The position numbers and the translations under genes were made by a program. The notes under the pieces are model-generated. The model saw only the letters and a list, made by a program, of their open reading frames with translations, did no database searches and had not been told where the DNA came from. This document shows, in pieces, positions 1 through 16,400 of a stretch of 32,000 nucleotides of DNA. Numbering within the stretch: the stretch's first letter is position 1; every line of letters starts with the position of its first letter. Source of the stretch: Geotalea uraniireducens Rf4 (GTDB lineage: Bacteria; Desulfobacterota; Desulfuromonadia; Geobacterales; Geobacteraceae); contig NC_009483.1 of NCBI RefSeq assembly GCF_000016745.1, positions 1,350,001 to 1,382,000 of the forward strand, given 5' to 3'.

Positions 1-960
1 AGCCGGGAGAGCAGGGAGCTCGTCGCCCGCTTCGTCCGGTCGGGCTATTTCGACGTTACGGAGTACGTAAGCAGTGACCGGCGGGTGCGGGAACTGGTGG
101 ACCGTGGGAATGTGAAGGCTGTGCTCCGGATGAACAGCGGGTTTGCACGGACTCTTGCTGCGGAAAGGTCTGCGCCGGTGCAATTGGTCCTCGACGGCAC
201 CGATTCCAATACCGCTGCCATCGTTCTCAGCCATGCGGGGCGGATAGCCGCCCGTTATACAGAGGACCTCCAGGCGGAGCAGGTGGCCGGAATGATTGGC
301 CGGCAGCCGCGTCTCGGCGGGGTGCGGCTCGAGAGCCGTGCCTGGTTCAACGACAACCTGGAGAGCCGCAACTTCTACGTGCCGGCGGTGATCACCAACA
401 TCGTCTTCATCATCACCATGCTCCTTTCGAGCATGGCGGTGGTGCGGGAGAAGGAGATCGGCACCATGGAGCAGATCATCGTTACCCCGATCACGAAGAG
501 CGAGTTCATTCTCGGCAAGACGATCCCCTTTGTCCTGATCGGCTTCATCGACGTGGGACTTATTTCCGCTGTGGCCGCCTTCTGGTTCCAGGTCCCGATG
601 CGGGGGAGCATCCCGCTCCTGTTCGGCGCCACGGCATTATTCCTCATGAGCTCCCTCGGCATCGGCCTGCTCATCTCGACGGTGAGCCGCACCCAGCAGC
701 AGGCGATGATGAGCGCCTTCTTCGTCATCTTTCCAGCCATGCTCCTGTCCGGTTTTGCCTTTCCCATCGAAAACATGCCGCCGGCGGTCCAGTGGCTCAC
801 CTACCTGAATCCGATCCGTTATTTCCTCGTCATCATCCGTGGGATTTTTCTCAAAGGGGTTGGTGTTGATATCCTTTGGCCGCAATTATCGGCCCTTGCC
901 ATTCTTGGAAGCATTATCCTCTTCTTTGCCGTGCAGCGTTTCCACAAGACCTTAAGCTAA
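1..960 (+). CDS. ABC-2 type transporter permease (YbhR/YbhS-like), 5'-truncated by the window edge
   Basis: Frame 1 is open from nt 1 to the TAA at 958-960, so the true start lies upstream; the ORF-track start at 85 is only the first in-window start codon. The translation has multiple hydrophobic TM segments and the ABC-2-type motif EKEIGTMEQIIVTPI. Confidence 0.85.
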   Translation, partial: SRESRELVARFVRSGYFDVTEYVSSDRRVRELVDRGNVKAVLRMNSGFARTLAAERSAPVQLVLDGTDSNTAAIVLSHAGRIAARYTEDLQAEQVAGMIGRQPRLGGVRLESRAWFNDNLESRNFYVPAVITNIVFIITMLLSSMAVVREKEIGTMEQIIVTPITKSEFILGKTIPFVLIGFIDVGLISAVAAFWFQVPMRGSIPLLFGATALFLMSSLGIGLLISTVSRTQQQAMMSAFFVIFPAMLLSGFAFPIENMPPAVQWLTYLNPIRYFLVIIRGIFLKGVGVDILWPQLSALAILGSIILFFAVQRFHKTLS

Positions 961-1155: not shown

Positions 1156-2622
1156 ATGCCGCGGCTAAGTCCAAGAATCATTGCTACCGTTCCTGCAACG
1201 CTCGACACGCCATCTTCAAAAATCGAGATGGTAATTACCGACCTCGGCCTGAACGGCGCTTATCTCAGGGCGCACTCTCCCTTCCCCGGCAAGAAACTGG
1301 GCGTGGATACCCCGGTTTTGCTGCAATATAACCTCTTCGGGAAAGGACTTTTTGAGCATCGTGGAAATATAATAAGGAAGGATAACGCCGGTTATGCCGT
1401 GAATTTTCCCGGGCTCGATTTTGCCACAAAACGCAAGCTTTGGGAGTTTATCGTCGACAATCTGTCCGATGTGCACGAGTGCCCATTTTGCGGCGAGAGT
1501 TACATCACGATGCCGACCACATGCAAAAGATGCGGCTGGGAACTCAATTTCAACCCTCCGGAGTATTTCAACTACTATGAAAAGAACTGCACGATCAAGA
1601 AATTGCATGAAAGACTGTCCGGCCTGGATATAGAGCAGTTACAGAAAATCGTCAATTTTATCGACATCGATATTGCAAAGGTTATGGGGAGTGAGGAAAT
1701 TCAGGAATTTGTCGGCACAGGCAACGCCATGCTGGAAGTGTTCGCCAATATCAGGAAGGTGGCTCCTACCGACCTCACCGTCTTGGTCCTGGGAGAAAGC
1801 GGCACCGGCAAGGAACTGACAGCCCAGGCAATTCACGATCGGAGTACTCGCAAGGACAAACCCTTCGTAGCGATAAACTGTGCTGCAATTCCGGACAATC
1901 TCCTCGAAGCGGAACTTTTCGGCTATGAAAAGGGGGCGTTTACCGGGGCGCACATCAGCAAAAAGGGGAAATTTGAATTTGCGGACAACGGGACCATTTT
2001 CCTGGATGAGATCGGCGATATGCCTCCCAATCTCCAGGCGAAACTGTTGCGGTTTCTCCAGGACAAGATTGTGGAGAGGATCGGCACCGTCGGCGGGAAG
2101 AAGGTCAATGTGCGGCTTATTGCCGCCACCAACCGTGATCTTGATGCCGCGATTGCCGAGGGGAAGTTCCGAAGTGACCTTTATTACAGGTTGGATGAGT
2201 TTACCATTAATCTTCCCCCGGTCCGGGAACGGGGGGAAGATACGGTAATCCTTGCCAAGTACTTCCTGAACAAGTTTTCCAGGGAAGTCGGCTTGACGAA
2301 GACCTTTACCAAAGATGCTGCCGACGCTATCCGCAATTACGACTGGCCGGGGAATGTCAGGGAGATAATCAACAAGGTGAGAAGGGCGATAGTTATGGCC
2401 GGCGGCAAAACCGTCACTCCCGTGGATTTGCTTCTGGACGTGGCAAAGATGGATGTTGGAGCGGAAAATAATCAGCTGAGCGATGCGTTGGCCCAAATTG
2501 AAAGGGCGAAGATCAAAGAAGTTCTCAAAGGCTGCAGCCATAACCTTTCCAATGCTGCCAGGATGCTGGGGATAAGCCGTCCCACCCTGTACCGTCGCAT
2601 GAAGATTTATGGCATCGATTAG
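1156..2622 (+). CDS. Sigma-54-dependent transcriptional activator (bEBP) with an N-terminal PilZ-like domain and a CxxC...CxxC zinc ribbon; no receiver domain
   Basis: AAA+ sigma-54 interaction domain: Walker A GESGTGKE, the GAFTGA loop (EKGAFTGA), IFLDEIGDM, RLIAATNRDL. C-terminal Fis-type HTH: NAARMLGISRPTLYRRMKIYGI. The N-terminus has RLSPR (RxxxR) followed 22 aa later by DLGLNG (DxSxxG with S to G), a PilZ signature. Zinc ribbon: CPFCGESYITMPTTCKRCG. Confidence 0.9.
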   Translation: MPRLSPRIIATVPATLDTPSSKIEMVITDLGLNGAYLRAHSPFPGKKLGVDTPVLLQYNLFGKGLFEHRGNIIRKDNAGYAVNFPGLDFATKRKLWEFIVDNLSDVHECPFCGESYITMPTTCKRCGWELNFNPPEYFNYYEKNCTIKKLHERLSGLDIEQLQKIVNFIDIDIAKVMGSEEIQEFVGTGNAMLEVFANIRKVAPTDLTVLVLGESGTGKELTAQAIHDRSTRKDKPFVAINCAAIPDNLLEAELFGYEKGAFTGAHISKKGKFEFADNGTIFLDEIGDMPPNLQAKLLRFLQDKIVERIGTVGGKKVNVRLIAATNRDLDAAIAEGKFRSDLYYRLDEFTINLPPVRERGEDTVILAKYFLNKFSREVGLTKTFTKDAADAIRNYDWPGNVREIINKVRRAIVMAGGKTVTPVDLLLDVAKMDVGAENNQLSDALAQIERAKIKEVLKGCSHNLSNAARMLGISRPTLYRRMKIYGID

Positions 2623-2629
2623 GCGTCAT

Positions 2630-2671
2630 GGGAAGAGTGAACTGTATCAGACTTTTACAGTCACTCTTCCC
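2630..2671 (+). terminator. Strong hairpin immediately after the activator stop codon (terminator-like, no clear T tract; may also hold an activator binding site)
   Basis: GGGAAGAGTGA(A)CTGTA, loop, TACAGTCACTCTTCCC: a 16-bp stem with one bulged A, starting 8 nt after the stop at 2620-2622. Confidence 0.4.
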
Positions 2672-2852
2672 TGAAAATTACAATAACCCATTGAAAACAC
2701 AAAGTAACCTCCCTGTTCCCTCCCAATTCGACCGGCTGTAAATTACACTTTTTTAACAATTTTTACAAAATATTTGCCGCATCGTCGGGCTAATGATGGG
2801 TAAAAAAAATAAATTTCAACAATATCGCTATGTTACGAATGGTTGCGGTAAG

Positions 2853-2867
2853 TGGCACAGCAATTGC
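2853..2867 (+). promoter_or_regulatory. Sigma-54 (RpoN) -24/-12 promoter
   Basis: TGGCAC (2853-2858), agcaa, TTGC (2864-2867) is an exact match to the TGGCAC-N5-TTGC core. It lies about 60 nt upstream of the ATG at 2927 and about 230 nt downstream of a sigma-54 activator gene. Confidence 0.8.
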
Positions 2868-2926
2868 CTTATAAGGGTAGAGCATGGCATTGTGCCTTGC
2901 CAAAATCTTTGTAAGGAGGAATTGTT

Positions 2927-3958
2927 ATGAAAACGAGAGAAAAGAGAATAATTGTTTCATTGGCCCTTGCCCTTGCTTTAGGACTCGGAACTCAAGCCTT
3001 CGCGCTGGATGAGGTCGAGGTAACTGGTAACGATCTTGTCGGCGCAGTGGACGGGGGGACCTCCGCCAATGACGATGCCACCGCCGTCGGGCAGAATTCA
3101 CTGAACGATAATACTGTCATCGGAGAAATTGAGGTAGACAAGTCGACCGAGACTGCCACCCAGAACGGCAGCGAGAACGAGGCGGAAGATGGGAGCGCGG
3201 CGGCCAACAACAGCTCTATTGCTGTCGGCGAGATTGAATTGGACAAGTCGACCAATGACAGCAACAACAACAACTCCAACCAGGACAACAGCTTAGGTAA
3301 AACGCAGGTTGCAGTGGAAGTGGAAGACAGTTTCAACGACAGTTCCGACAACTCCAACCAGGACAATATCACAGATTCATTTAACGACAAGGCCGAAGCT
3401 GAAGGTGACGGCATATCGCTGGTCGATTCCGAAGAAGTGATCGTTACCAAAGATTCCTTCAACGGCAATATAGGTGAGGTTGAGGGCGGAAGCGTTGCAG
3501 CGACGAATGGTGGGACCGCTACCATGACCGACAGCTACAACGAAGACGAGAGCATCAATGCAACAGCCGACAGAGGTGGCATTGCGGTCAATTCTGACGA
3601 GGAAGTCGAAATAGAAGTCGCCGAAGATTCTTTCAACAACAAAGCGGAAGAGGGGAGCGTAGCGATTTACGGCGATAATGAAGACGATATCGAAATCGCA
3701 TCCCACAACACCATCAACAGCGACAATGAAACCACTACAGTCACGGTGGGTAATGTAGTCATCGAAGTTGCTTCAAGCGTTCTGGCTGGTGAGGTTACCG
3801 CCAACACGTTAGTCGCTACTCCTACTCTCGACTTAATTACCGGCGAAAACGAAATAGACGGCGCCTCTGTGAACACGGCCGGTATCTCGGTGATATCGCA
3901 GAACAGCGGTATTCAGTCCCAGGTGCAGCAGGCTGTAACGGTTCAGTATAACCAATAG
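2927..3958 (+). CDS. Secreted, highly acidic low-complexity repeat protein (343 aa) with a C-terminal QNSG-motif domain; family unknown
   Basis: RBS AAGGAGG about 7 nt upstream. Sec signal peptide MKTREKRIIVSLALALALGLGTQAFA. The body is D/E/N/S-rich with GEIE(V/L)DKST x2 and DSFN/DSYN x5, and has no Cys or Trp. C-terminus: ...ITGENEIDGASVNTAGISVISQNSGIQSQVQQAVTVQYNQ. Confidence 0.8.
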   Translation: MKTREKRIIVSLALALALGLGTQAFALDEVEVTGNDLVGAVDGGTSANDDATAVGQNSLNDNTVIGEIEVDKSTETATQNGSENEAEDGSAAANNSSIAVGEIELDKSTNDSNNNNSNQDNSLGKTQVAVEVEDSFNDSSDNSNQDNITDSFNDKAEAEGDGISLVDSEEVIVTKDSFNGNIGEVEGGSVAATNGGTATMTDSYNEDESINATADRGGIAVNSDEEVEIEVAEDSFNNKAEEGSVAIYGDNEDDIEIASHNTINSDNETTTVTVGNVVIEVASSVLAGEVTANTLVATPTLDLITGENEIDGASVNTAGISVISQNSGIQSQVQQAVTVQYNQ

Positions 3959-3975
3959 TCAGCTGTCAGTATTTG

Positions 3976-4015
3976 CCCGGTGGCGCGCAATAAGGCCGTC
4001 ACCGGGAGCATTTTT
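3976..4015 (+). terminator. Possible intercistronic attenuator/partial terminator after the first secreted-protein gene
   Basis: CCCGGTG (3976-3982) pairs with CACCGGG (4000-4006), followed by agcaTTTTT (4011-4015). Modest stem with a large loop. Confidence 0.3.
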
Positions 4016-4066
4016 AACCGAAGCCTGAAAATCCTGGAGCAACACATAATAACAGGAGGCAGGGAA

Positions 4067-4471
4067 ATGCGAAGATCAACTAAATCTCTGATTGCCGCAC
4101 TGGTTTTTTCCGGCAGCGCTTTTCTGGCGCAGGGTTCTTCGGCAAATGAGATCGATCTGGCTTCGGCCGGGCAGATGGATGCATTAAACGAGTCCGGATT
4201 GGGGCAAGCGGTATCTAACGAGAACCTGGGAACGCTAACCGGTCGCGAGGATGTGAATATCAACCAATTGGACATGCAGATAAGCACCTCGGACCAGAAA
4301 GCCCAAGCGAACGGTAACAGCCTTAGTAACTATGGCACAATCGCCAACGGCGCCAACACCCTCGGCGGGAATGCCTTTTCTCAATCCACCGGGATAGTTA
4401 CCGTGATTCAGAACTCGGGCAATCAGGTCCTCATTCAGAACGATATGATCCTGAATTTAACGGTAAAATAA
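4067..4471 (+). CDS. Small secreted protein (134 aa) with a C-terminal QNSG-motif domain; family unknown
   Basis: AGGAGG at 4054-4059, 7 nt before the ATG at 4067; the ORF-track start at 3980 lacks these signals. Signal peptide MRRSTKSLIAALVFSGSAFLAQGSSA. C-terminus: GANTLGGNAFSQSTGIVTVIQNSGNQVLIQNDMILNLTVK. Confidence 0.75.
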   Translation: MRRSTKSLIAALVFSGSAFLAQGSSANEIDLASAGQMDALNESGLGQAVSNENLGTLTGREDVNINQLDMQISTSDQKAQANGNSLSNYGTIANGANTLGGNAFSQSTGIVTVIQNSGNQVLIQNDMILNLTVK

Positions 4472-4472
4472 G

Positions 4473-5183
4473 ATGGATGCCATGAAATGGTTTCTGATAA
4501 AACTTAGTAAACTTCTTGTTTTTTCAGCTTTTCTGTCAGCGACGTCGCCGGCTCAGGCGGGTACCGTAATTGTGCCCGGTGTGTCCGGCGGCGGTTTTAT
4601 GGTTAAGGTGACGAGCTTGAAGGAAGCGCGCTTCCGTTCCACGATTCTCCAGCAATACGATTTCAGTTGCGGCTCCGCGGCGCTGGCCACCCTGTTGACC
4701 TACCACTATGAGGACAAAGTCAGTGAACAGGATGTATTCAAGTTCATGTTCGACACGGGAGACCAGGAGAAGATTCGCAAAAACGGCTTTTCGCTGCTTG
4801 ATATGAAGAATTACCTTGAGGCCAACGGCTACAGGGCTGCCGGCTACCAAATTACCCTTGACAAGCTGGCGGAGATTGGCGTGCCTGCCATTGTTCTGAT
4901 CAACATCAAGGGCTATAAGCATTTTGTGGTGGTCAAGGGGATTTCGGCGAAAATGGTGTTGTTGTCAGACCCGGCTGCGGGTGCCAGAACCATTCCGCGT
5001 GCCGAGTTCGAGTCTATGTGGAATGGGCTCATATTTATAATATTAAACAAAAAGAACGTAGCAAAAAACCACTTCAACCGCGACCAGGAATGGCACGTCA
5101 AAGAAAAGGCTCCTTTGGGATTGGCTTTAAATGCCAGAGAGCTGGCCAATGTGACCTTGATGCTGCCGGGGGTATTACGATGA
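4473..5183 (+). CDS. Periplasmic C39-family (bacteriocin-processing type) cysteine peptidase-like protein, standalone with its own signal peptide
   Basis: The start ATG is 1 nt after the upstream stop. Signal peptide ...LVFSAFLSATSPAQA. C39 signature order Q...C...H...D: LQQYDFSCGSAALATLLTYHY (Cys), GYKHFVVVKG (His), VLLSDPAAG (Asp). There is no ABC transporter domain. Confidence 0.85.
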   Translation: MDAMKWFLIKLSKLLVFSAFLSATSPAQAGTVIVPGVSGGGFMVKVTSLKEARFRSTILQQYDFSCGSAALATLLTYHYEDKVSEQDVFKFMFDTGDQEKIRKNGFSLLDMKNYLEANGYRAAGYQITLDKLAEIGVPAIVLINIKGYKHFVVVKGISAKMVLLSDPAAGARTIPRAEFESMWNGLIFIILNKKNVAKNHFNRDQEWHVKEKAPLGLALNARELANVTLMLPGVLR

Positions 5184-5695
5184 AAACAGCAATGAATAAA
5201 CATGTGTTGAGAGCCGTCCTGTTAATGGCAACAGTTATGGCGGCAAGTCATTCGGCTTATGCGGATTCAGTTGCATGCGGCGATTGCAGTTTCGTCACGG
5301 ACCTGGAGCTGGAAAATATTCGCGGGGGATTTGTTTCCGGCGACGGGCTGGAGATTACCTTCGGCATCGAAAAGACAGTTTTTGTCAACGGCGTGCTGCA
5401 GGCAATCAACACCTTGAATATGCAGAAGTGGGGCTCAGAGCAGAGTCAGACTTTGTCTGACCAGGTTCTTTCCAATATGGCGATCTTGCGTCAGAACGGC
5501 GACAACAACAGTATTGTGCCGAATTTAGTCGCCAACTCGCAAGGAGGGTTTTTTACGTATATCCAGAACAGCGTGGATAACACGGTCATTAAAAACGTAA
5601 CCCAGATCAATGCCACCGTAAATGCCCTCAATATGTTCCGCGATATGAACCTGAAGTCAATGATGAATCAACAGTTGCTCAATGCGATGAAGTAA
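5180..5695 (+). CDS. Small secreted protein (171 aa) with a double-glycine-leader-like propeptide and a degenerate QNS motif; family unknown
   Basis: The ATG at 5180 overlaps the peptidase stop (ATGA). Signal peptide MKTAMNKHVLRAVLLMATVMAASHSAYA, then DSVACGDCSFVTDLELENIRGG/FVSGDG. Later motif: GGFFTYIQNSVDNTVIKNVTQINATV. The ORF-track start at 5018 lies inside the peptidase gene and was rejected. Confidence 0.75.
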   Translation: MKTAMNKHVLRAVLLMATVMAASHSAYADSVACGDCSFVTDLELENIRGGFVSGDGLEITFGIEKTVFVNGVLQAINTLNMQKWGSEQSQTLSDQVLSNMAILRQNGDNNSIVPNLVANSQGGFFTYIQNSVDNTVIKNVTQINATVNALNMFRDMNLKSMMNQQLLNAMK

Positions 5696-5716
5696 TCGTA
5701 ACGACAGTAGGCGGGT

Positions 5717-5762
5717 AAAAAAATCCGTCAGTTCCCAAAACAGGGATCTGACGGATTTTTTT
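5717..5762. terminator. Bidirectional Rho-independent terminator between convergent genes
   Basis: AAAAAAA-ATCCGTCAGtTCCC, loop aaaaca, GGGAtCTGACGGAT-TTTTTTT: a 13-bp stem with one mismatch, an A-run on one side and a T-run on the other. Confidence 0.8.
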
Positions 5763-5785
5763 GTGAAGTTCGACAGGCTCATGAT

Positions 5786-6997
5786 CTATTTGCCGCCCAG
5801 CAGGAAACTGGTCGGTATCCGCACCGTCAATTGCACATTGGGGGAGGTTGGCGTAAGCCCCGCCCCGAGAGAAAAGTTGATGGCTGTTTTGTCGGTCAGC
5901 TTGTAAGAACAGCCAAGCAGGAGGCTACCTACCTGGGTGATGGTCGAACCGGCTATTTCATGTCCGTTCTGTTTCGCTTTGCCGAGGATGATATGGTCGT
6001 AGCCGATGCTGAAAGAGGCTTTTTCGTTGAGCGCTACGCCGATACCGAAGTTGAAGCCGATGGTGTCGCCCGGGTCCAGTTTACCCTGACCGGAGATTTC
6101 GCGATCCATATTCCACATATAGCTAAGCGTGCCGAAAAAGACTGCCGGATCTGAGGCCCAAATTGCGGTTATGCCGGGCTGGATGGCCCAGAAGCCCGAT
6201 CCGGTGGGGAGTTCGGTCTGCAACGGCACCCCTGACGGACTTGTGACAGTAGAGTCGGTAGAGACTTCAAACGGGTTTTTGCCGGTAATGGACTTGGCGC
6301 GCAGGCTGGCAATGAAAAAAGGCCCATTGCCGCCTGGTTGATTAAGCTGGAATCGAGGGCCGAATTCCACATCGCCGATGTTGTTCCCCTCGGCGTTGAA
6401 AACGGTTGGTGGGATCGTTTTGCCACTCGGATCTTTTGTCGGTTCAAACGATGTGGAATCTGCACGGTATACGTACGGGACCCTGACCTCGAATTCCAGA
6501 CGGTTGGTGATGCCGTAGCGTGCTGCGAGAGAGGCTACATAGGTGTTGCTGTTGACATTCCTGACATCGATGAGTCCGATGGTAAACGAAGGAATGATGG
6601 TGTAGCCGCTCAAGGCCACCCGGTTGGATGACGAGTTCACAAACTGGAAAGACGGTTCCAGTACAAGCGTTCCCTTTGGCGTCAATACTCCCGGCTGTTC
6701 GAAGATCGTGGCGATGTCAGGTGGCTTGCCTTCCTTGGGTTTCTCCGGCGGCTGGCCGACCGATTGGGGAGGGGGCGGTTCTTTCTTTGGATCGGATTTC
6801 TGTTGTGTCGGCGAGCTTTCATTCGGATCGGTCTTGTTCTGGTCAGACTTGTTCTGGCTCAGAGTATGAGTTTCTTCGGCACTGTGAGTTTTGTTCGTGC
6901 CGGGAGCAGAAGTTTCTTCACCGAAGGCCGGCGCGCTTGCCAACAACGCACATGCCAGGCAGACGCAGGCGACAATCTTCGATCGATGTGAAGTCAT
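5786..6997 (-). CDS. Outer-membrane beta-barrel protein (403 aa) with a long Pro/Lys/Gln/Ser-rich N-terminal linker; family not assigned (loosely reminiscent of MetA-pathway/transporter-type barrels)
   Basis: An internal ATG (6997-6995) is preceded by a GGGGGG RBS and gives the signal peptide MTSHRSKIVACVCLACALLASAPAFG. About 90 aa of low-complexity linker follow (…KSDPKKEPPPPQSVGQPPEKPKEGKPPD), then about 300 aa of alternating hydrophobic beta-strand pattern. The C-terminal residue is not aromatic. Confidence 0.7.
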   Translation of the reverse strand: MTSHRSKIVACVCLACALLASAPAFGEETSAPGTNKTHSAEETHTLSQNKSDQNKTDPNESSPTQQKSDPKKEPPPPQSVGQPPEKPKEGKPPDIATIFEQPGVLTPKGTLVLEPSFQFVNSSSNRVALSGYTIIPSFTIGLIDVRNVNSNTYVASLAARYGITNRLEFEVRVPYVYRADSTSFEPTKDPSGKTIPPTVFNAEGNNIGDVEFGPRFQLNQPGGNGPFFIASLRAKSITGKNPFEVSTDSTVTSPSGVPLQTELPTGSGFWAIQPGITAIWASDPAVFFGTLSYMWNMDREISGQGKLDPGDTIGFNFGIGVALNEKASFSIGYDHIILGKAKQNGHEIAGSTITQVGSLLLGCSYKLTDKTAINFSLGAGLTPTSPNVQLTVRIPTSFLLGGK

Positions 6998-7047: not shown

Positions 7048-7075
7048 AATTTATCCAATTGCATCCCATTGTCAA
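7048..7075 (-). promoter_or_regulatory. Candidate sigma-70 promoter for the outer-membrane barrel gene
   Basis: On the minus strand: TTGACA (7075-7070), 16-nt spacer, TAAATT (7053-7048), about 50 nt upstream of the ATG at 6997. Motif match only. Confidence 0.35.
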
Positions 7076-7116: not shown

Positions 7117-7199
7117 ATACGTCTAATAAGTGGTAGCCCAATAGTTATTCTTTGATCCGGTTTTGTCTCTCAAATTTGTTATTCGATGGGGGGAATGAA

Positions 7200-7541
7200 A
7201 TGGATATGAATCGATTCCGTGAAAAAAAGCTGTTTTGGTTAATCGTATGCTATGGGCTAATTTCCCTGATTTTTAGCGTCAATTGCTTCGCCGACGAGGC
7301 TGACGTCGGCTTTAACAGTTACCCCGAGCTCCCGGATTTGTCCTCTGACAGAGCAGTGCCGGACCTTTTCACCGGTACGATGAACTATGCGATCCCGATT
7401 AAGGCGCCGCCGGGCCGTAATGGGATGAGCCCTAACATAGCTCTAACCTACCGGAGCAGTAACGGCAACGGCCCGATCGGCATGGGGTGGGAAATTGAGA
7501 TGGGTGCAATTCAGCGCTCCACGCGCGGCGGTGTCGACTAA
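7200..7541 (+). CDS. Signal peptide plus the N-terminal part of an SpvB/TcaC-type (Tc toxin B-subunit N-terminal) domain; out of frame with the downstream RHS body
   Basis: GGGGGGA RBS, then ATG at 7200. Signal peptide MDMNRFREKKLFWLIVCYGLISLIFSVNCFA. SpvB-N signature: TGTMNYAIPIKAPPGRNGMSPNIALTYRSSNGNGPIGMGWEIEMGAIQRSTRGG. Stops at the TAA 7539-7541 in frame 3, while the RHS body is in frame 1 (open from 7447). Confidence 0.7.
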   Translation: MDMNRFREKKLFWLIVCYGLISLIFSVNCFADEADVGFNSYPELPDLSSDRAVPDLFTGTMNYAIPIKAPPGRNGMSPNIALTYRSSNGNGPIGMGWEIEMGAIQRSTRGGVD

Positions 7542-10500
7542 ACAGTCGTCTATTTCAAGCGGATGGCCGGATCAGACTTGGACCGGTCCGACCATATCTT
7601 CCACAGTATATGGTAACCCTGTAGCCAATCAATGTTTAGCCGGCGATTTCGAGGGTGACGGAAGGACCGACATAGTCTGCTATCCCGGCAACGGTGGGAC
7701 TTGGAATATGGCTCTATCCGGATTAGCAACAGAAACTGGGTGGTCTTCCATTATGTCCTGGTCCGGACCGACGCTTAATACAGGCTCTCCTACTGTCAGT
7801 GCCGGCTATGACTGTCTGACCGGCGATTTCGATGGTGACGGAAAAACCGATCTGACCTGCTGGGGCGGAAGCAGTACTTGGTATATGGCGTTATCTTCAA
7901 CAAGAACCGGCGCCGGATGGCAGACCCAGAACTGGGCTGGCCCAACGTTAACATTTTCGAACGTAGCTATTCTTGTGCCCGACAAATGTATAACCGGCGA
8001 TTTCAATGGCGACGGAAAGACAGCCCTGGCCTGCTTCGACAGCGGTGCATGGACATTGGCCTTATCCACTGGAAGAAGCTGGGAAGTTCCGAGCTGGAAT
8101 GGGGGCCCGGCAATTAGTCCAAATCTATCCATCAGAGATCAATGTATTTGGGGCGATTTCAACGGTGATGGGGTAACCGACGCGGCCTGCTATACCGGGG
8201 CATCGCCTTATAACTGGAATATGACACTGTCAATCTCAAACGCATGGATGCATCAGGATTTGGAAGGTCCAATACTGCAGAACTCCCATGTCGGCTATCA
8301 GTGTCTGACCGGCGACTTCAACGGCGACGGGAAAACCGACTTTGCCTGCCTCGATAACTATGGTTCCGGCAGCGGTGGAACCTGGAATGTGGCATTATCA
8401 TATGGAACCGGCTGGTATCAAAAGTATTTGCAGTGGGAGGGTCCGGCACCAAAACCAGATGTCCCCGTCGGCAGGCAGTGCACGGTCGGCGATTTCGACG
8501 GTAACGGGAAAACAGACGTGGCGTGCTATTCAGGCATCGGCGGAGCTTGGAATGTGGCTCTGTCATACGACGATCATTACTGGACAACCGACTTACTCAC
8601 CTCGATTTACAACGGTCTCGGCTCAAAAACCGACATCGAATACTGGCCTTCAACAGCTAGTGATCCGAATATTCAGCTTCCATGGCTGGACCATCATAAT
8701 CCCCGCCTTCCCTTTCCTGTCCATACAGTCCACTCCGTAACGACGTGCGACAACTACACAAGTTCAAGCTGTGTCGGCAATTCATCCGTGACAAACTACA
8801 GTTTTGCCGGCGGGTTCTATCAAATCTACGAACACGACTTTCGAGGGTTCAATTATGCGAAGGTCACCGGCCCTGCGGGGCCGGACGGTGAACAGAAAAT
8901 AGTCGAGACATGGTTCCACCAGGGAGACGACTTGGCTGTTGATGCGAATGATCCTGGCGCGCTATATGATGACACGAAGGGGAAACCGTACCGTACCCGC
9001 GTCTCAGGAATTGCGAATGGACAGGCGCTCGCAACGTACTCTGAGGTGGAGACAACCTATACTACCGTGGCTGATGCCTATCATGTAGCCCCAGGCCAGA
9101 TAGACATATACTGCTGCGCAGATGGCGTCTCAGGTGCATGTAAGGGCAGCACCAATGCCCGACATACGCAGACTTCTTACACCTATGATCAATACGGCAA
9201 CGTGAAGCGTGAAAACCAATACGGCGACGTAAGCGACCCAACCGATGACCGCACTGTTCTCAGAGGTTACGTCCAAAATCAAGACGCCTGGATCGTGGGC
9301 CTTCTCTCCAGTGAAACCGTTTATCAAGGCATTGGTCTGCAAACTCCGGTTTCCTCCACAAATTATGACTATGACGGGGCTACCGATTGCTCGACTTATT
9401 CGCCGACCACGTCACCGGTGAAGGGCAACCTCACCCGTGCCGTCCGTTGGTATAATGGGGGGACGAACACGGAGACCTGGACAAGATATGACGGTTACGG
9501 CAACCCAGTTTGCAGCAAGGATGCAAATGACAATATCACCAGAGTAAGCTACGACAACACTTTTACTTTCCCCAAAATAAGCACCAATCCCTTGGAACAG
9601 CCGACAACCACCCAGTATTACGGCGTGGATGGTGTACCTGCGGATTATGGACTCTATGGCCAGATAAAGAGCATCACTGACCCTAACAACGCTGTGACTT
9701 CTTATGAATATGATCGTTTCGGCAGAAGAACCAAAGCAAACAGGCCGAACTTCGAATGGACGGAGTGGAGGTATAATAGTTTCGGTACGGTCGGCTATCA
9801 GCATGTGCGGGTCAATACCTCCGCCGGCTTCTGGTCTGAGGATTATTTTGACGGTCTGGGGCGGACGTTCAAGGAAAGGAAGAGTGGGCCGGATGCGAAG
9901 ACCATTGTTGCCGACACCCGGTATGACAGACGCGGAGCCGTAGCGCAGGCGTCGCTCCCCTATTTCGAAGGAACTGAGACACCCAGGTACAAGTTGTTCA
10001 CCTACGATCCGATGGGCCGCGTAACACAGGCGACCAGCCCTGACCCGAACATTCGGATATTGTCCTGCTTTGATGAAGGGGTTATGGTGACCATCGACCC
10101 CAACAACCACCGCAAGCGGGAGAGCAGGGACGTTTACGGCCGCCTCGTGAAGGTGGAGGAATACACCGGGACCTATGCCGCCTGTTCGACGGAGGCAGGG
10201 ACCCCGTATGCAACTACCAGCTACAGTTACGACGTGCTGGGGAACCTCCGTTTCGTGACCGACACCAAGGGGAACCAGACCGAGATGCGCTACGACACCC
10301 TCGGTCGTAAATACTACATGAAAGACCCTGACATGGGTGCGTGGAGCTATGGCTACGCCGCAAACGGCAACCTGACTGCCCAAACAGATGCCGATAGCCA
10401 GACCATCCGGTTCACCTACGACCCGTTGAACAGGATCACCCTTAAGGACTACCCCAGCGGCACAGACGTCGTCTATACCTATGACGAATCATTTTCCTCA

Positions 10501-12261
10501 AACCCCCTGGGTCGCCTCACCACCATGACCGACGAGTCGGGAAACACTAAATATTTCTACGACTCGTTAGGGAGGATTACAAAAACAGTTAAGACAGTGG
10601 ATGGGAAAAGCTATACGATCGAAGTTGGGTACACAAAGTTCGACAGGATCTGGTACATTAATTACCCGGACACTGAGCAAGTCCTCTACGAATATGACAC
10701 GGGCGGAAACATCTACAAGGTGGGTAACTACGCCACTTTTACCAATTACAACGCCCTCGGTCAGCCGGGCTCCCTCAACTTCGGCAACGGCGTGAGCACC
10801 ATTTATCAGTACTATCCCCTCAACAACCGCCTTTACTCAATCACCACCAACAGCCCGACCCAGGGCCTCATCAACCTTTCCTATGGCTACGACAATCAGG
10901 GAAACATCACCAGCATCACCGATCACCTCAACGCGTCCATCCCGCACAACTTCACTGGCAGAAGCTTCACCCTCTATCCAGGCAAGGCTCACGCCTACGG
11001 CATCACCGGCACAGGTTTCCAGTACGGCCCCAGCGGGAACATGACCAACAACGGTCAGTACAGCATCCTCTACACCTACGACAACATGCCCCGTTCCATA
11101 GGGGGGGCGGTAAGCTACGTCTACGACGGCAACGGAAGCAGGGTGAAGAAGATCACCCCTGCAACCACAAGGACTTACTTGGATAAGTTCTATGAGTGCG
11201 TTGGAGATGTCTGCGGCAAATACATATTTGCCGGTAATACCAGGATTGTGCTGAAGAGTTCCTTGGGGACCTATTACTACCACCAGGACCACCTGGGGAG
11301 CACCGTTGCAGCGACCGACACGGGCGGCAACAAGGCGGAAAACATCGCCTATTATCCCTTCGGTGAAAGCAGGTCGGATACCGGCAGCACTGGGGTGATC
11401 CACAAATACACCTCGCAGGAGCTGGACTATGAGACAGGGCTCTACAACTACAACGCACGGCTGTATTATCCGGAGATCGGGAGGTTTATTACTGCGGATA
11501 CGATTGTGCCTGATTATGCGAATCCGCAGAGTCTGAACAGGTACGCTTATGTTCAAAATAATCCTATGAATTATGTGGATCCAACTGGTCATGAAGATAT
11601 TTATATTCTTAGAGATGTTTTTGAATTGTCGAATATACAAACAGGTCCTTCACTAGCTGATACCTTTATCGAAGATTTGCCAGGGGATGCCAACGGATTA
11701 TATTTGCCATATCCGTATTTAGGTGAAGTCAATACGGGGACACCTTTCCTCAATTCAGCTGTAAATGGGGTTATCTCAGACTTCTCAACAGCCGCTTATT
11801 ATGGAAATATTACTTATAGTATTCTCGGCTTAAATAATGTCAATCTACAAGATCTGAGCAGGGCCAATGACTACCTAACCGCTGGGTCTCTAGCACTCAT
11901 GCTATTTCCTCCTACAGCTCCTTTTGGTGCGGCCGCGCTCACAACAACTGGTTTAGTTGGCGTAAGTTTAGGCGTTACGGAGGGTATTATAACAAGTAGT
12001 GCCAATAAAATATTATCAAGTGCGGCTGAGTTCAGCATAGGGATGGGAGCAGGAAGATTGGCAAGGAGAGTAGCTGGCCTAACTGCTGTTAAATTCAATT
12101 TTAAGGCGAGCAGATACTATTCAGAGGCAACAGGTAGATTCGTAAGAACTAGTACAGGTCTAAACAGCTCCCAATTAAAAGAAGGAGCAGGGGCAATTTC
12201 TTCAATACCGTTCAAGCTGTCTCCCAATAATGACCCTTCTCAAGCAGGAGGTAGGCAATAG
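7495..12261 (+). CDS. Fused TcB/TcC-like RHS (YD-repeat) polymorphic toxin: six FG-GAP/VCBS-type repeats, a TcdB-middle-like region, YD repeats, an RHS core and a variable C-terminal toxin domain
   Basis: Six repeats of about 48 aa ending C-x-x-GDF-[DNE]-G-[DN]-G-x-T-[DA]-x-x-C. TcdB-mid-like segments: LTSIYNGLGSKTDIEYWPST, YEHDFRGFNYAKV, ETWFHQGD. More than 12 YD repeats (YTYDQYGNV, YEYDRFGRR, YSYDVLGNL, YGYDNQGNI ...). RHS core: YYYHQDHLGSTVAATD...YYPFGE...YNARLYYPEIGRFITADT...NRYAYVQNNPMNYVDPTGHE. The true start is uncertain; the 7495 TTG is only the ORF-track start. Confidence 0.9.
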   Translation: MRWVQFSAPRAAVSTKQSSISSGWPDQTWTGPTISSTVYGNPVANQCLAGDFEGDGRTDIVCYPGNGGTWNMALSGLATETGWSSIMSWSGPTLNTGSPTVSAGYDCLTGDFDGDGKTDLTCWGGSSTWYMALSSTRTGAGWQTQNWAGPTLTFSNVAILVPDKCITGDFNGDGKTALACFDSGAWTLALSTGRSWEVPSWNGGPAISPNLSIRDQCIWGDFNGDGVTDAACYTGASPYNWNMTLSISNAWMHQDLEGPILQNSHVGYQCLTGDFNGDGKTDFACLDNYGSGSGGTWNVALSYGTGWYQKYLQWEGPAPKPDVPVGRQCTVGDFDGNGKTDVACYSGIGGAWNVALSYDDHYWTTDLLTSIYNGLGSKTDIEYWPSTASDPNIQLPWLDHHNPRLPFPVHTVHSVTTCDNYTSSSCVGNSSVTNYSFAGGFYQIYEHDFRGFNYAKVTGPAGPDGEQKIVETWFHQGDDLAVDANDPGALYDDTKGKPYRTRVSGIANGQALATYSEVETTYTTVADAYHVAPGQIDIYCCADGVSGACKGSTNARHTQTSYTYDQYGNVKRENQYGDVSDPTDDRTVLRGYVQNQDAWIVGLLSSETVYQGIGLQTPVSSTNYDYDGATDCSTYSPTTSPVKGNLTRAVRWYNGGTNTETWTRYDGYGNPVCSKDANDNITRVSYDNTFTFPKISTNPLEQPTTTQYYGVDGVPADYGLYGQIKSITDPNNAVTSYEYDRFGRRTKANRPNFEWTEWRYNSFGTVGYQHVRVNTSAGFWSEDYFDGLGRTFKERKSGPDAKTIVADTRYDRRGAVAQASLPYFEGTETPRYKLFTYDPMGRVTQATSPDPNIRILSCFDEGVMVTIDPNNHRKRESRDVYGRLVKVEEYTGTYAACSTEAGTPYATTSYSYDVLGNLRFVTDTKGNQTEMRYDTLGRKYYMKDPDMGAWSYGYAANGNLTAQTDADSQTIRFTYDPLNRITLKDYPSGTDVVYTYDESFSSNPLGRLTTMTDESGNTKYFYDSLGRITKTVKTVDGKSYTIEVGYTKFDRIWYINYPDTEQVLYEYDTGGNIYKVGNYATFTNYNALGQPGSLNFGNGVSTIYQYYPLNNRLYSITTNSPTQGLINLSYGYDNQGNITSITDHLNASIPHNFTGRSFTLYPGKAHAYGITGTGFQYGPSGNMTNNGQYSILYTYDNMPRSIGGAVSYVYDGNGSRVKKITPATTRTYLDKFYECVGDVCGKYIFAGNTRIVLKSSLGTYYYHQDHLGSTVAATDTGGNKAENIAYYPFGESRSDTGSTGVIHKYTSQELDYETGLYNYNARLYYPEIGRFITADTIVPDYANPQSLNRYAYVQNNPMNYVDPTGHEDIYILRDVFELSNIQTGPSLADTFIEDLPGDANGLYLPYPYLGEVNTGTPFLNSAVNGVISDFSTAAYYGNITYSILGLNNVNLQDLSRANDYLTAGSLALMLFPPTAPFGAAALTTTGLVGVSLGVTEGIITSSANKILSSAAEFSIGMGAGRLARRVAGLTAVKFNFKASRYYSEATGRFVRTSTGLNSSQLKEGAGAISSIPFKLSPNNDPSQAGGRQ

Positions 12262-12527: not shown

Positions 12528-13202
12528 ATGAAAAAGTATCTAGTTTTCATTGTGATGGCTGCGGTTTTATGCACACTTTCAGATATCGCCATGGCGGACA
12601 GTATCAAAGGTAGATTGGGCGTAACAGGACGGCTCGGGTTCATGGTTCCTTCCGGCAGCGAATTTACAAAAGTATCCCAATACACCATTATCCCTTCATT
12701 TTCTGTAGCTGTGCCCGAGACTGGTAAAGGAAAAGCTGACACGGCCTTTGCCGGAGGTGGCGGCTTTATTTACGGCATCACCGACAACTTTGCTCTTGAG
12801 GCTGATGTTACCCATACCCCCAATATTAACTATGTTTTTTTAGGACAAAAATCAGTAAGAATCACTACTACTAACGTTTCTCTAGGCTTCCAATACCGCT
12901 TCATTCCTGAGAGCAGGCTTGTACCTTACCTGGGGGCCGGAGTGGATTTCATTATCAGCGATGGCAAATACCAAGGCAGGGATGAATTGGATATTGAAAC
13001 CCTTGTCGGCGACCATGTGAATGCCGGCGTTGATTTCTTCGTCACGAAACACATTGCCCTGAATGCCGATATCAGAGGTGTTCTGGCTCCCAAGGCAGAA
13101 GTCAACAACCGAAACTTATCGCTTCCGGAGAATTTGAAAACAGGCGAATACGATCCGATCAGCTTTGTCGCCCTTTTCGGCGTGAGGTTCTTTTTATACT
13201 GA
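12528..13202 (+). CDS. Small outer-membrane beta-barrel protein (OmpW/OmpA-beta-barrel-like, 224 aa)
   Basis: GGAGAG RBS. Signal peptide MKKYLVFIVMAAVLCTLSDIAMA. Alternating beta-strand pattern (GGGGFIYGITDNFALEADV, VSLGFQYRF, YLGAGVDFIISD, NAGVDFFVTKHIALNADIRGV). C-terminal aromatic signature GVRFFLY. Confidence 0.8.
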   Translation: MKKYLVFIVMAAVLCTLSDIAMADSIKGRLGVTGRLGFMVPSGSEFTKVSQYTIIPSFSVAVPETGKGKADTAFAGGGGFIYGITDNFALEADVTHTPNINYVFLGQKSVRITTTNVSLGFQYRFIPESRLVPYLGAGVDFIISDGKYQGRDELDIETLVGDHVNAGVDFFVTKHIALNADIRGVLAPKAEVNNRNLSLPENLKTGEYDPISFVALFGVRFFLY

Positions 13203-13280
13203 GGAGTGCCGCAAAAGGCAGATCTGTGTAATTTGACAATAACGCAATACTTTAAATGCATTGCATGAGAGGGCCAGCAT

Positions 13281-13388
13281 ATGTCAATCAAACCAAAGTT
13301 CAAGGCATTAGTGACGTTGCTTATAATCGTTGTCAGTGTAATGTCTGCATCCGTGGCTTACGCAGCGGTGGCAACGTACAGCTATTGA
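13281..13388 (+). CDS. Orphaned signal-peptide segment of the downstream giant surface protein (35 codons, ends at an in-frame TGA created by an apparent 1-nt frameshift)
   Basis: GAGAGGG RBS, ATG at 13281, translation MSIKPKFKALVTLLIIVVSVMSASVAYAAVATYSY, stop TGA at 13386-13388. Deleting one T of TATT (13383-13386) joins it in frame to the 13402..18813 ORF and completes a YD repeat. Confidence 0.7.
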   Translation: MSIKPKFKALVTLLIIVVSVMSASVAYAAVATYSY

Positions 13389-13401
13389 CGAACTGAACCG
13401 T

Positions 13402-16400
13402 TTGACACGGGTGGACTATGACGATGGGACATATATTGCTTACACTTATGACGAGATTGGGAATCGGCTAAATACTACTACAAATGCTCCCAGCGATACT
13501 ACCCCGCCGACGGGGACAGTCGCAATAAACGGCGGATCGCCTGTCACCACTTCAACTGCCGTAACACTTTCGCTTAGCTGCAGCGATGCTAACGGCTGCG
13601 CTCAAATGCAATTCAGTAACGATAACGCAACTTGGTCGACGGTGGAAGCTTTTACGTCCACAAAGGCCTGGACATTGATCACAGGAGAAGGCGCAAAGAC
13701 AGTCTATGTAAAATTCAAGGATACTGTCGGGAACTGGTCAACCGCAGTCGGTGATGCCATCGTGTTTGACACAACAGCCCCAACAACCACCGCTTCGCCT
13801 ACAGGGGGGACATACACTACATCTTTATCGGTGACCCTGATGTGCAACGACGGGACAGGAGGCGGTTGCGACAAAATCTACTATACGACCGACGGCACAA
13901 TACCCACGACGTCATCGAGCGTTTATTCAGCCCCAATACCCATGTCAGAGCCTACAACATTGAAATTTCTCGCGATAGACCTCGCCGGCTACAGCGAAGC
14001 GGTGAAGACGCAGACCTACACAATCGACACTATGCGGCCGACCGGTTCAGTATCAATTAACGGAGGTGCAAATTATACCAACGCTTCAACCGTAACATTA
14101 ACCCTTTCCTGCACTGACAATTCAGGTTGTGACTATATGGAAATCTCGAACTATAACACTGTCTGGCAGGGACCATATGCGACAACCAAGGTATGGACTC
14201 TTCTTCCATCAGGAGACGGCGCCAAGACAGTCTACGTCAACTTCAGGGATACGGCGGGCAACTGGATGTCAACTTCCGTCAGTGCCACCATTGTGCTCGA
14301 TACAACGGTCCCGGTGACCACCGTTTCGCCGACAGAGGGGACGTATAACGCCACCAAGTTGGTGACCCTGACATGCGGTGACGGGACGGGAGCAGGGTGC
14401 GACAAAATCTACTATACAACGGACGGTACAACGCCAACCACTGCATCGAGCGTTTATGCAGGAGCAATAACCGTAGCAGCAACCACGACACTGAAGTACT
14501 TCGCCACCGACGCTGCCGGCAACAGCGAAGCAGTGAAAAGTAAAGCATACATCATAGACACGACGCTGCCGGTAACTACTGTTTCACCGGCAGGAGGGGC
14601 GTACAATACCAGCCAGACGATATCCCTGACCTGCAGCGACGGCGCAGGAACAGGTTGTGATAAGATCTATTACACAACCAATGGTACAACCCCAACCACG
14701 TCGTCGAGCGTCTATTCAACCCCAATATCCGTGTCAACGACTACGACATTGAAGTTCTTTGCAACAGACCTTGCCGGTAACACTGAGGTTGTGAAAAACC
14801 AGACTTACACTATCGATATAACACCGCCGACCGGCACCGTAACGATCAATGCTGGAGCAAACTATACCAACACCGCGGCCGCAACGTTGACCCTTTCCTG
14901 CAACGACAGTGTTGGTTGCGACCAGATGCAGTTCAGCAACGACAACGCGAGCTGGTCGTCGCCTGAAACGCATATGACAACCAAGGTGTGGACCTTGGTC
15001 CTAGGAGATGGCACCAAGACCGTCTACGCCAAATTCAAGGACATGGCGGGCAACTGGTCAACCGCCGTCAGCGACACAATCGTATTTGATGCAACTGCAC
15101 CGGTGACCACCGCTTCGCCGGCGGGAGGGGTGTATAACGCCGCCAAGTCGGTAACTATGACATGCGGTGACGGGACGGGAGCAGGGTGCGACAAAATCTA
15201 CTATACAACCGACGGTACGACACCAACCACTGCATCGAGCGTTTATTCAGGAGCAATAACCGTAGCTGCAACCGCGACACTGAAGTACTTCGCGACCGAC
15301 CTTGTCGGAAACAGCGAAACGGTTAAGTCCCAGACTTACACCATCGACACTACGCCTCCGGTGACTGCCGCTTCACCTGGTAGCGGCGCATACAATACCA
15401 GCCAGACAGTGACCCTGGCCTGTAATGACGGTGTTGGTTCAGGTTGCGACAAAATTTACTACACAACTAACGGAGCCACCCCAACCACGTCATCGAGTGT
15501 CTATTCAACCCCGGTAACCGTGTCCGCGACCACGACGTTGAAGTTTTTTGCAACAGACCTCGTCGGCAACAACGAAACAGTGAAGACCCAGACCTATACC
15601 ATCGACACAACGCCGCCGACCGGCACCATCACAGTCAATAGTGGGGCAGCTTATGTCACAGCAGCAAACGTGACGCTGGCCCTTTCCTGCACCGACAGTG
15701 TTGGTTGCAGCCAGATGCAGTTCAGTAACGACAATTCCAACTGGTCGTCGCCTGAGTCATACGCGACGACCAAGGCGTGGACCCTGGCCACCGGAGACGG
15801 AAACAAAACGGTGTACGTCAAGTTCAAGGATACGGCGGGCAACTGGTCAACAGTTTACAGCGATACTATTTTGCTTGACGCAACAGCACCGGTAACAACC
15901 GCTTCACCTGCCGGAGGGTTCTACAATACCAGCAAGACTGTGACCCTGACGAGTAACGACGGTGCCGGGTTGGGCGTTGACAAGATTTACTATACCATCG
16001 ACGGCACCACCCCCACCACATCGTCGAGCGTCTATGCAGACCCGATTAACATTACGGCCACAACCACCTTGAAGTTTTTTGCCACCGACCTGGCCGGCCA
16101 CACAGAGACGGTGAAAACCAAGACCTACACCATTGACGTCATTGCGCCAACCGTAACCATTACTTCTCCTGCACTTGGCACAACCAACGACAATTCTCCC
16201 CTTCTGACCTATACTACAAATGACGGAACGTGGGTGTCTAATGTTGTAGTCAAGGTGGATGGCGTTATCGTAAGCAAGGTTTCCGGTTACAGTCTGGCTC
16301 CATTGGCTGATGGCATCCATACCGTACGGGTAGAAGCAACTGATTTGGCTGGCAATACCGGCTTTGCCGAAGTAGTCTTTACGGTTGCCCTTGCCTTTAC

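Follow-up and report, generated by a model that had tools for sequence, protein, structure and literature searches.

What does the locus at positions 1,156 to 6,997 of the Geotalea uraniireducens Rf4 sequence that we analysed, a stretch of 32,000 nucleotides from contig NC_009483.1 (positions 1,350,001 to 1,382,000, hereafter the window), secrete, and with which machinery? The locus, which codes for proteins ABQ25356-ABQ25361, contains a gene for a sigma-54 activator, an operon for a C39 peptidase and three secreted proteins that we call cargo A, B and E, and a convergent gene for an outer-membrane beta-barrel. The three cargo proteins are annotated as hypothetical in databases. The initial annotation, made from the letters of the sequence, proposed an undescribed fibre or matrix system that is analogous to, but distinct in sequence from, the Fap functional amyloid of Pseudomonas, which is encoded by fapABCDEF and for which structures of FapF (5O65, 5O67 and 5O68) and of FapC fibrils (9NQD and 9U4U) are available. 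We conclude, with a probability of about 0.72, that the locus encodes a divergent Fap-type (FapD/FapE/FapF) secretion and assembly system, and that it falls in a large clade that is sister to the canonical fapABCDEF systems of Pseudomonas. Fap was the right comparator, and the kind of function proposed in the initial annotation, a secreted fibre or matrix under an activator of the sigma-54/c-di-GMP type, also appears right; however, the relationship is one of homology and not of analogy, as is seen in the matches to FapD (E = 4e-49), FapF (E = 1e-44) and FapE (94.5% probability).

The peptidase (236 residues; 4473..5183, + strand) is a standalone periplasmic protein of the C39 family (Pfam Peptidase_C39, E = 1.4e-23) with an N-terminal hydrophobic signal; here and in the cargo proteins signal peptides were judged by eye and from homologue alignments. 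The corresponding RefSeq protein, WP_041245786.1, starts at 4482, 9 nucleotides (3 codons) later; the peptidase is 100% identical to the G. uraniireducens database protein, and a C39 protein of G. metallireducens shares 63% identity with it. The best NCBIfam model is C39_FapD (E = 4.3e-49, 167 bits), the next best is FilB of Acinetobacter (120 bits), and an alignment of 17 relatives (A2) shows no variation at Q60, C66, H150 and D166. On these matches the peptidase is clearly a homologue of FapD. The barrel (403 residues, WP_011938083.1; 5786..6997, - strand) is, by the same kind of comparison, clearly a homologue of FapF: it matches the NCBIfam FapF model over model positions 103-420 (E = 9.8e-45, 153 bits), and its residues 94-396 match plug and barrel of the FapF structure 5O67 (E = 3.5e-32). 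As 153 bits lie below the equivalog cutoff of 700 for FapF, we place the barrel in the family without calling it an equivalog. Between its signal peptide and the matched region lies a disordered stretch of about 90 residues, rich in Pro, Lys, Gln and Ser, in place of the coiled coil of FapF.

The cassette recurs in many genomes. The relatives that we compared comprise 80 loci from GTDB contigs with one genome per species, and therefore from 80 different species, together with loci from Geobacteraceae, Cupriavidus and Vibrio; one Aeromonas caviae fap operon and 80 Pseudomonas-like metagenomic loci served as the canonical set. The genome scan returned at least 598 candidate C39 matches, and the gene neighbourhood was checked for the best 80, all of which proved to be loci of this cassette type. 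The order of genes is a variable A, a small B, the C39 peptidase, E and the barrel. Iterative profile searches of all open reading frames (ORFs) in 83 non-redundant loci place an E-type gene after the peptidase in every one of the 83, a B-type gene before it in 79/83, a FapF-like barrel next to the cassette on either strand in 69/83, and one or two A-type genes upstream in 67/83. B, peptidase, E and barrel occur together in 66/83 loci, and many of the others are cut by contig ends. The view in the initial annotation that the barrel is linked to the operon by adjacency only does not survive the comparison, as the barrel adjoins the cassette in many classes and phyla. Cassettes were found in Alpha-, Beta- and Gammaproteobacteria, Desulfobacterota, Nitrospira, and metagenome-assembled genomes (MAGs) labelled Vicinamibacterales and Chloroflexota. 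G. grbiciae, which is closely related to G. metallireducens, is among the species that have it. Within this clade the median identity is 46% for the peptidase and 40% for the barrel, against 24-38% and 21-33%, respectively, in comparisons with canonical Fap. By these identities the peptidases and barrels of the clade form a group separate from canonical Fap.

The only significant Pfam match of the barrel is to Phenol_MetA_deg (E = 7e-9), and its gene is convergent to the operon and has, as already remarked in the initial annotation, a candidate sigma-70-like promoter of its own (TTGACA-16-TAAATT, 7048..7075, - strand, 10/12 in a consensus scan). One could assume from this that the protein is an unrelated uptake channel for hydrophobic compounds, of the COG4313/Phenol_MetA_deg type, that lies beside a secreted-protein operon by chance. 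However, the matches to FapF are far stronger (E = 1e-44 for the model and 3.5e-32 for the structure), and in the 69 loci counted above, which span classes and phyla, a barrel gene stands beside the cassette in one orientation or the other, which makes a chance neighbour scarcely credible. The barrel gene and the operon share a bidirectional intrinsic terminator (5718..5763) made of A7, a 16-bp stem and T7. Its predicted fold has an energy of -30.4 kcal/mol (z = -5.7), and 0/200 shuffled sequences were as stable; terminator, convergent barrel and its linker of about 90 residues are all as the initial annotation had described them.

Are the secreted proteins related to Fap proteins too? Searches of Pfam and NCBIfam, including the FapB, FapC and FapE models, gave no match to A, B or E even at E <= 10. 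The same models do recognise the divergent Fap proteins of Aeromonas. A search of PDB sequences found no match to B, and none to Aeromonas FapE. Plain hidden Markov models (HMMs) of the cargo gave weak scores against a handful of Fap sequences, in part driven by the signal peptides, and for this reason the cargo families were compared profile to profile (hhalign) with column-shuffle controls and trimming of signal peptides. A word-indexed homologue search with E as query yielded 7 matches only, and the E family was therefore assembled from the ORFs of the fetched loci. Cargo E (171 residues, ABQ25360.1; 5180..5695, + strand) has a Sec signal, a double-glycine leader-like motif, a GL.ITFGIE block of the FapE type and a Q/N-rich unit at residues about 106-148, in addition to internal unit-like segments. 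The E family matches canonical FapE with 94.5% probability. After removal of the signal peptides the probability is 83%, with a score of 45 as compared to 12.8 +/- 2.3 in 60 column shuffles, and both families share the block (D/E)-E-L-x-x-[LMI]-R-G-[GR]-[FY]-V-...-G-x-x-[IV]-S-F-G-I. By this comparison E is a remote homologue of FapE, not one at the level of an equivalog. The profiles of the B and E families (gB and gE) match each other with 97-98% probability, and on that evidence B and E are paralogues of each other.

Cargo B (134 residues, ABQ25358.1; 4067..4471, + strand) consists of a Sec signal, the leader-like sequence ENLGTLTGR and one C-terminal unit, within which the block TVIQNSGNQVLIQN is invariant in the family alignment (A1). 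A homologue search with B found 49 relatives, and all matches whose source was named came from Geobacteraceae; searched against 1.84 billion representative sequences, the B profile matched 1265 clusters (50% identity) at E <= 1e-3. Cargo A (343 residues, ABQ25357.1; 2927..3958, + strand) carries a Sec signal; the low-complexity region after it is hyper-acidic and contains five degenerate DS[FY]N motifs. Its mature part contains 65 Asp and Glu against 7 Lys and Arg residues, which bears out the description of this protein as hyper-acidic. At residues 303-342, A gives a score of 32 bits with the unit HMM, and the A family (gA) matches the B family with 93-95% probability over the C-terminal 66 columns. 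The QNSG motif that the initial annotation had seen in the three secreted proteins is real and forms part of this unit of about 40 residues (consensus ..N.I..gAFsnAsGi.tViQNsGNNVlIQNaTiVNv), which each of A, B and E has in exactly one copy at its C-terminus and which no further ORF of the window contains.

The kinship between this unit and the repeats of canonical FapB and FapC is shown less firmly than that of the machinery and of E. The two profiles align with a score of 19.9 and a probability of 55%, as compared to scores of 8.3 +/- 1.8 in 150 column shuffles, the highest of which was 13.1, and the alignment of the unit HMM to repeats R2 and R3 of FapB is in register, as in ATIGGNAFSNGNGILGVNQGAGANNQMANVTRVSI. 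This is consistent with homology between unit and Fap repeat.

Across the clade the number of units per protein varies. A-type genes range from about 200 to 1700 codons across related loci, and their passenger regions differ by taxon: hyper-acidic in Geotalea, Gly-rich in Cupriavidus and Ser/Asn-rich in others, with arrays of the unit in Alphaproteobacteria. In the alphaproteobacterial A-type proteins of loci L054, L018 and L016 this takes the form of 9, 5 and 4 tandem units, respectively, as counted with the unit HMM, and P0215, a protein of 1500 residues from the representative library, has 17 matched stretches. The A-type proteins of Indioceanicola (L009, 658-5496, 1612 residues) and of a Limimonas MAG (L054, 1248-6302, 1684 residues) are built of repeats of about 65-70 residues, each of which contains the unit (..SFNG.AGI.TVQQNNG..N..). 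Tandem arrays are what a stacking repeat would give.

The main rival to the Fap-type fibre reading accepts the Fap-like machinery and denies the fibre. The C-terminal unit would then be a secretion or targeting signal that is read by the barrel or the peptidase, and the three cargo proteins would be exoproteins, either soluble or attached to the surface, such as an acidic cation- or mineral-binding protein of a metal reducer. The invariance of TVIQNSGNQVLIQN across the B family, the position of the unit at the extreme C-terminus of all three proteins, the hyper-acidic low-complexity character of A and the wide divergence of A-type passengers between taxa (acidic, Gly-rich, Ser/Asn-rich) are all compatible with such a tag, and a targeting sequence for FapF was also the subject of speculation by Rouse et al. 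2017. However, long tandem arrays (9 units in L054, 17 stretches in P0215) are unexpected for a terminal signal, the unit is in register with the FapB amyloid repeat, and E has unit-like segments in its interior. We regard the secretion tag as rather unlikely.

A second question is what the peptidase cuts. The four genes of the operon are tightly packed and co-directional, as had been described; B and peptidase are separated by a gap of 1 nucleotide at 4472 (TAA-G-ATG), and stop and start codon of peptidase and E overlap in ATGA (5180-5183). The C39 domains of bacteriocin exporters cleave after a double-glycine leader with the consensus L-S-x-x-E-L-x-x-I-x-G-G. In cargo E, residues 39-50, which follow the Sec signal, read V-T-D-L-E-L-E-N-I-R-G-G and precede a phenylalanine, with V(-12), E(-8), L(-7), I(-4), G(-2) and G(-1) in agreement with this consensus; the segment across the proposed cut is SFVTDLELENIRGG-FVSGD. 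Counted as [LIVMF]-x-x-[LIVMFA]-[RSKT]-G-[GR], the motif occurs in 67/80 E-type proteins (about 6 expected from shuffles), 65 of them with a G-G ending, and under this strict pattern in 32/81, or about 40%, of B-type proteins (about 3 expected). After the Sec signal, the form L-x-x-[ML]-R-G-G is found in E and, outside the Geobacteraceae, in most B proteins, and this suggests that the motif is a candidate cleavage site for the C39 peptidase. Canonical FapE has E-[LM]-x-x-L-R-G-R at the aligned position (21/21), whereas there were 0 occurrences of the motif in FapB and FapC. Secretion requires the catalytic Cys of FapD, N-terminal peptides are lacking for FapE alone among the Fap proteins, and as of 2017 FapD's target was described as still unclear (PMC5557850).

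The textbook leader-like motif E-L-x-x-I-x-G-G in E, the intact catalytic site of the peptidase and its weak NCBIfam matches to the peptidase domains of bacteriocin ABC transporters allow for another explanation, namely that B and E are double-glycine precursors of bacteriocin- or microcin-like proteins, matured by the peptidase and released as antimicrobial or signalling proteins. However, unlike the C39 domains of bacteriocin exporters, the peptidase is a standalone protein of 236 residues with a Sec signal, periplasmic and not fused to an ABC exporter, the cargo has Sec signals that precede the leader-like motif, and export is proposed to proceed through an outer-membrane barrel. Furthermore, the conserved cassette contains neither an immunity gene nor an ABC/HlyD pair, peptidase and barrel have their closest relatives in FapD and FapF, and the cassette is tied to biofilm regulators of the VpsR and PilZ types. 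A bacteriocin-like role consequently appears highly improbable, and like the unrelated uptake barrel and the Fil-type pilus it fits the data poorly.

The Fil system of Acinetobacter (filA-F) likewise combines a C39 peptidase, FilB, and a FapF-like barrel, FilC, with a secreted fibre subunit, FilA. The matches to it are weaker than those to Fap (NCBIfam FilB, NF050078, 120 bits against 167 for FapD; FilC, NF050079, 37 against 153 for FapF), and the cargo profiles and unit HMMs found neither the unit nor the FapE block in FilA, FilE, FilF or other Fil ORFs; we therefore rejected a Fil-type pilus. In the A. baumannii locus examined (L007, CP040048.1, 4404-6404) the signal peptide of FilA is followed by MDDAALSAATGQ, which resembles the L-x-x-x-T-G-R of B-type proteins, and FilB is in two pieces, encoded by the ORFs 5565-6002 and 6012-6404. 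Curli (CsgA/B with CsgG/E/F) resemble the locus in their Q/N/G-rich secreted subunits, strand-turn-strand repeat and biofilm-type regulation. We rejected curli as well, since the export machinery differs and Pfam and NCBIfam gave no matches to CsgG, CsgE, CsgF or curlin repeats at the locus.

How might the operon be controlled? The gene upstream of it (ABQ25356.1, 488 residues; 1156..2622, + strand) encodes a bacterial enhancer-binding protein (bEBP) with a PilZ domain (25.9 bits, Pfam cutoff 22.5), a Cys4 zinc-ribbon-like segment, an AAA+ sigma-54 interaction domain (Sigma54_activat, E = 8e-71) and a Fis-type helix-turn-helix (HTH_8). In the PilZ domain the RxxxR motif is present (R3-R7), but the position of DxSxxG reads D29-L-G-L-N-G34 on direct reading, and binding of cyclic di-GMP (c-di-GMP) by the activator is on these grounds plausible, not assured. 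Downstream of this gene lies the sigma-54 (-24/-12) promoter TGGCACAGCAATTGC (2853..2867, + strand), which is indeed an exact match to TGGCAC-N5-TTGC and the sole one in the 32 kb window; it lies 60 nucleotides 5' of the ATG of A at 2927, and an AGGAGG ribosome-binding site is found within this interval. The alignment of the intergenic regions of G. uraniireducens and G. daltonii shows that the promoter and two upstream blocks are kept. One of the few conserved blocks is TGTATCAGACTTTTACAG (2643..2660, + strand), an imperfect TGTA-N9-TACA palindrome about 200 nucleotides upstream of the promoter and a putative binding site (upstream activating sequence) for the activator. It is enclosed by the arms of a perfect 11-nucleotide inverted repeat, GGGAAGAGTGA and TCACTCTTCCC, with a loop of 20 nucleotides (2630-2671, + strand) just past the stop codon of the activator gene. 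These arms are not kept in G. daltonii; the repeat may be a terminator or a protein-binding site.

Elements of this regulation recur in the clade. Sigma-54 sites with at most one mismatch are found in 25/70 related loci, many of them 30-135 nucleotides before the first cargo gene. From 400 nucleotides upstream of the first A or B ORF through the start of the C39 gene, which was the search region, their density is 0.205/kb, as compared to 0.051/kb elsewhere in the loci (about 4-fold). A bEBP gene lies within the fetched flanks of 37/83 loci. An orthologue of the PilZ-bEBP occupies the same position in G. daltonii and in a Desulfopila MAG; the latter protein, 1 of the 10 bEBPs that we scanned, has a PilZ and zinc-ribbon architecture identical to that of the activator in the window, and 8/10 have a VpsR N-domain. 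The exact consensus promoter and the adjacent bEBP gene, which together mark a sigma-54 operon, are both kept in related loci. One of the VpsR N-domains belongs to the bEBP at the canonical fap locus of Aeromonas, and this suggests that control of the sigma-54/VpsR type may be ancestral to both Fap clades. In that locus (A. caviae NZ_AP026896.1, L006) the VpsR-type activator region, 1625-4108, is divergent to fapBCDEF, and an ORF for an insertion sequence-type transposase (2966-4108) is placed between the activator gene and fapB.

Compared with canonical Fap, the clade has in common the standalone periplasmic C39 peptidase, the FapF-family barrel, a FapE-like protein with the ELxxxRG[GR]-FGI block, Q/N-rich cargo with a unit in register with the FapB repeat, the gene order of subunits, peptidase, E and barrel, and, as judged from Aeromonas, a nearby VpsR-type sigma-54 activator. 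Homologues of FapF, FapD and FapE are present at the locus. In contrast, the B protein of this clade is a paralogue of FapE and not a three-repeat FapB; proteins contain 1 to 17 or more units and not the "almost universal" three; E and most B proteins outside the Geobacteraceae have a true G-G where FapE has G-R; the barrel at our locus has no coiled-coil match and is encoded on the opposite strand; and the distribution reaches beyond Pseudomonadota. No FapB or FapC with three imperfect repeats was found in Geotalea, where the models find no match and each cargo protein has one unit, which itself resembles R2 and R3 of FapB. The operon contains no additional small gene that could correspond to fapA, and absence of FapA is the commonest variant of canonical systems (PMC3792158).

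To what extent is the system undescribed? Rouse et al. 2018 listed both WP_041245786.1 as a FapD hit (NC_009483.1, 1354482-1355183) and WP_011938083.1 as a FapF hit (1355786-1356997) in their Supplementary data 1, and they reported co-localised fapD and fapF homologues in five further phyla (PMC6173800; Fig. S1). Their definition of a Fap system called for at least four fap genes, and bare fapD/fapF pairs were excluded (PMC6173800). The same list has a second FapF HMM hit in this genome, WP_083764854.1, outside the window at 2354421-2355326 of NC_009483.1, with no FapD listed beside it. Our locus is one of the pairs of 2018; the cargo, the unit, the kinship with FapE, the double-glycine motif and the sigma-54/VpsR/PilZ linkage are not described there. 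A survey of December 2025 covered 1602 clusters, found three imperfect repeats to be almost universal and described the Fap system as evolutionarily "fixed" (PMC12822426). The literature yielded no earlier account of the cargo families, their kinship with FapE and FapB, the variable number of units, the double-glycine motif or the regulatory linkage. The claim of an undescribed system thus has to be narrowed: the FapD/FapF pair was catalogued in 2018, and the cargo is still hypothetical in databases and matched by no Pfam or NCBIfam model. The canonical repeat HMM does not detect cargo of the Geotalea type, which explains how surveys based on such models missed the clade.

If the locus encodes a Fap-type system, the following sequence of events can be proposed. 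A c-di-GMP-type activator, the PilZ-bEBP here and bEBPs with VpsR N-domains elsewhere, would drive transcription from the sigma-54 promoter at 2853, possibly under control of c-di-GMP. A, B, E and the peptidase would cross the inner membrane by the Sec pathway. From the motif and the published data on FapD and FapE, the peptidase would be expected to cut E after E-L-x-x-I-R-G-G, between G50 and F51, and probably B at the equivalent L-x-x-L-T-G-R, and this cleavage may be needed to open or prime secretion. Unfolded cargo would then leave through the FapF-like barrel, a route suggested by its homology. Outside the cell the FapB-like unit may stack into a cross-beta or beta-solenoid fibre, with B and E as candidates for nucleator and anchor, and A as the variable, here hyper-acidic, subunit displayed on a fibre of the biofilm matrix. 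What the comparisons show is the promoter, the activator and the cassette with their conservation, and the homology of the machinery, of E and, less firmly, of the unit; processing, export and formation of a fibre or an amyloid are inferred.

Several observations weigh against this reading. Both machinery proteins score far below the equivalog cutoffs (167 bits against 330 for FapD and, as stated, 153 against 700 for FapF), and the coiled-coil region of FapF is unmatched in the barrel, where the model match begins at position 103 (no dedicated coiled-coil predictor was used). The barrel gene is convergent and has its own putative promoter, the cargo proteins match no model, and the canonical repeat HMM passes over them. 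The segment that links unit and Fap repeat is short and compositionally biased, with a probability of only 55%, and each Geotalea cargo protein has one unit, whereas FapB and FapC are defined by three imperfect repeats. The near-invariance of TVIQNSGNQVLIQN would be compatible with a recognition or secretion signal too. With its net charge of about -58, A is poorly suited to an amyloid core. B proteins of Geobacteraceae read L-x-x-L-[ST]-G-R, with G-R and not G-G at the candidate cleavage site. AlphaFold2 models are of low confidence: the B monomer, from an alignment of 101 sequences, is largely disordered (predicted local distance difference test score, pLDDT, of 59) apart from a short helix that covers the leader-like motif and, in favour of the reading, a beta-hairpin (110-125) exactly at the conserved unit, and the model of E (pLDDT 37, from 8 sequences) is uninformative. 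Finally, our literature searches found no paper on this clade.

Upstream of the locus, 85-960 (+ strand) is the 3' end of a gene for an ABC-2 type transporter permease, and G. daltonii has a matching ABC-2 operon upstream of its PilZ-bEBP gene; the synteny between the two Geotalea genomes therefore extends beyond the cassette. Downstream, an Rhs/Tc-type toxin gene (7152-12261, + strand) is apparently split into an ORF for the SpvB N-terminal domain (7152-7541) and one in another frame for FG-GAP, TcdB_toxin_midN and RHS repeats (7495-12261), with an overlap of 47 nucleotides. The split may reflect an error in sequencing, a frameshift or a pseudogene. It is followed by what looks like a cell-surface island around the cassette (12528-25053, + strand), consisting of a small OmpW-like barrel (12528-13202) and two giant Ig-like/CHB_HEX_C/Big_12 proteins (13402-18813 and 19345-25053). 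Giant Ig-like proteins also adjoin the cassettes of G. daltonii and Geomesophilobacter.

If the clade makes fibres, then Fap-type functional amyloids would be more widespread and more plastic than thought, with methanotrophs, denitrifiers, nitrifiers (for example Nitrospira) and environmentally important anaerobes (for example Geobacter) within their reach, in a clade that escapes HMMs of the kind used in Fap surveys. As the linkage to bEBPs of the VpsR and PilZ types recurs, it suggests that matrix components of this class are controlled by a conserved c-di-GMP/RpoN circuit. The sister clade would also give a clearer view of the likely cleavage site of FapD-type peptidases, in that the double-glycine motif of its FapE-like proteins, aligned with the ELxxLRGR of FapE, provides a precise candidate for the substrate site of FapD. 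A bolder proposal, which we put forward tentatively and consider doubtful on balance, is that the clade represents a modular fibre display found in multiple phyla. The unit would be a universal C-terminal stacking tag by which diverse passengers are exported through the FapF-like barrel and co-polymerise, one rung per subunit, on a nucleus of B and E, and cleavage at L-x-x-[ML]-R-G-G would act as the gate. Were this true, the long-sought substrate site of FapD in canonical Fap would be the E-L-x-x-L-R-G-R of FapE, and Fap could no longer be regarded as a three-repeat system that is evolutionarily "fixed".

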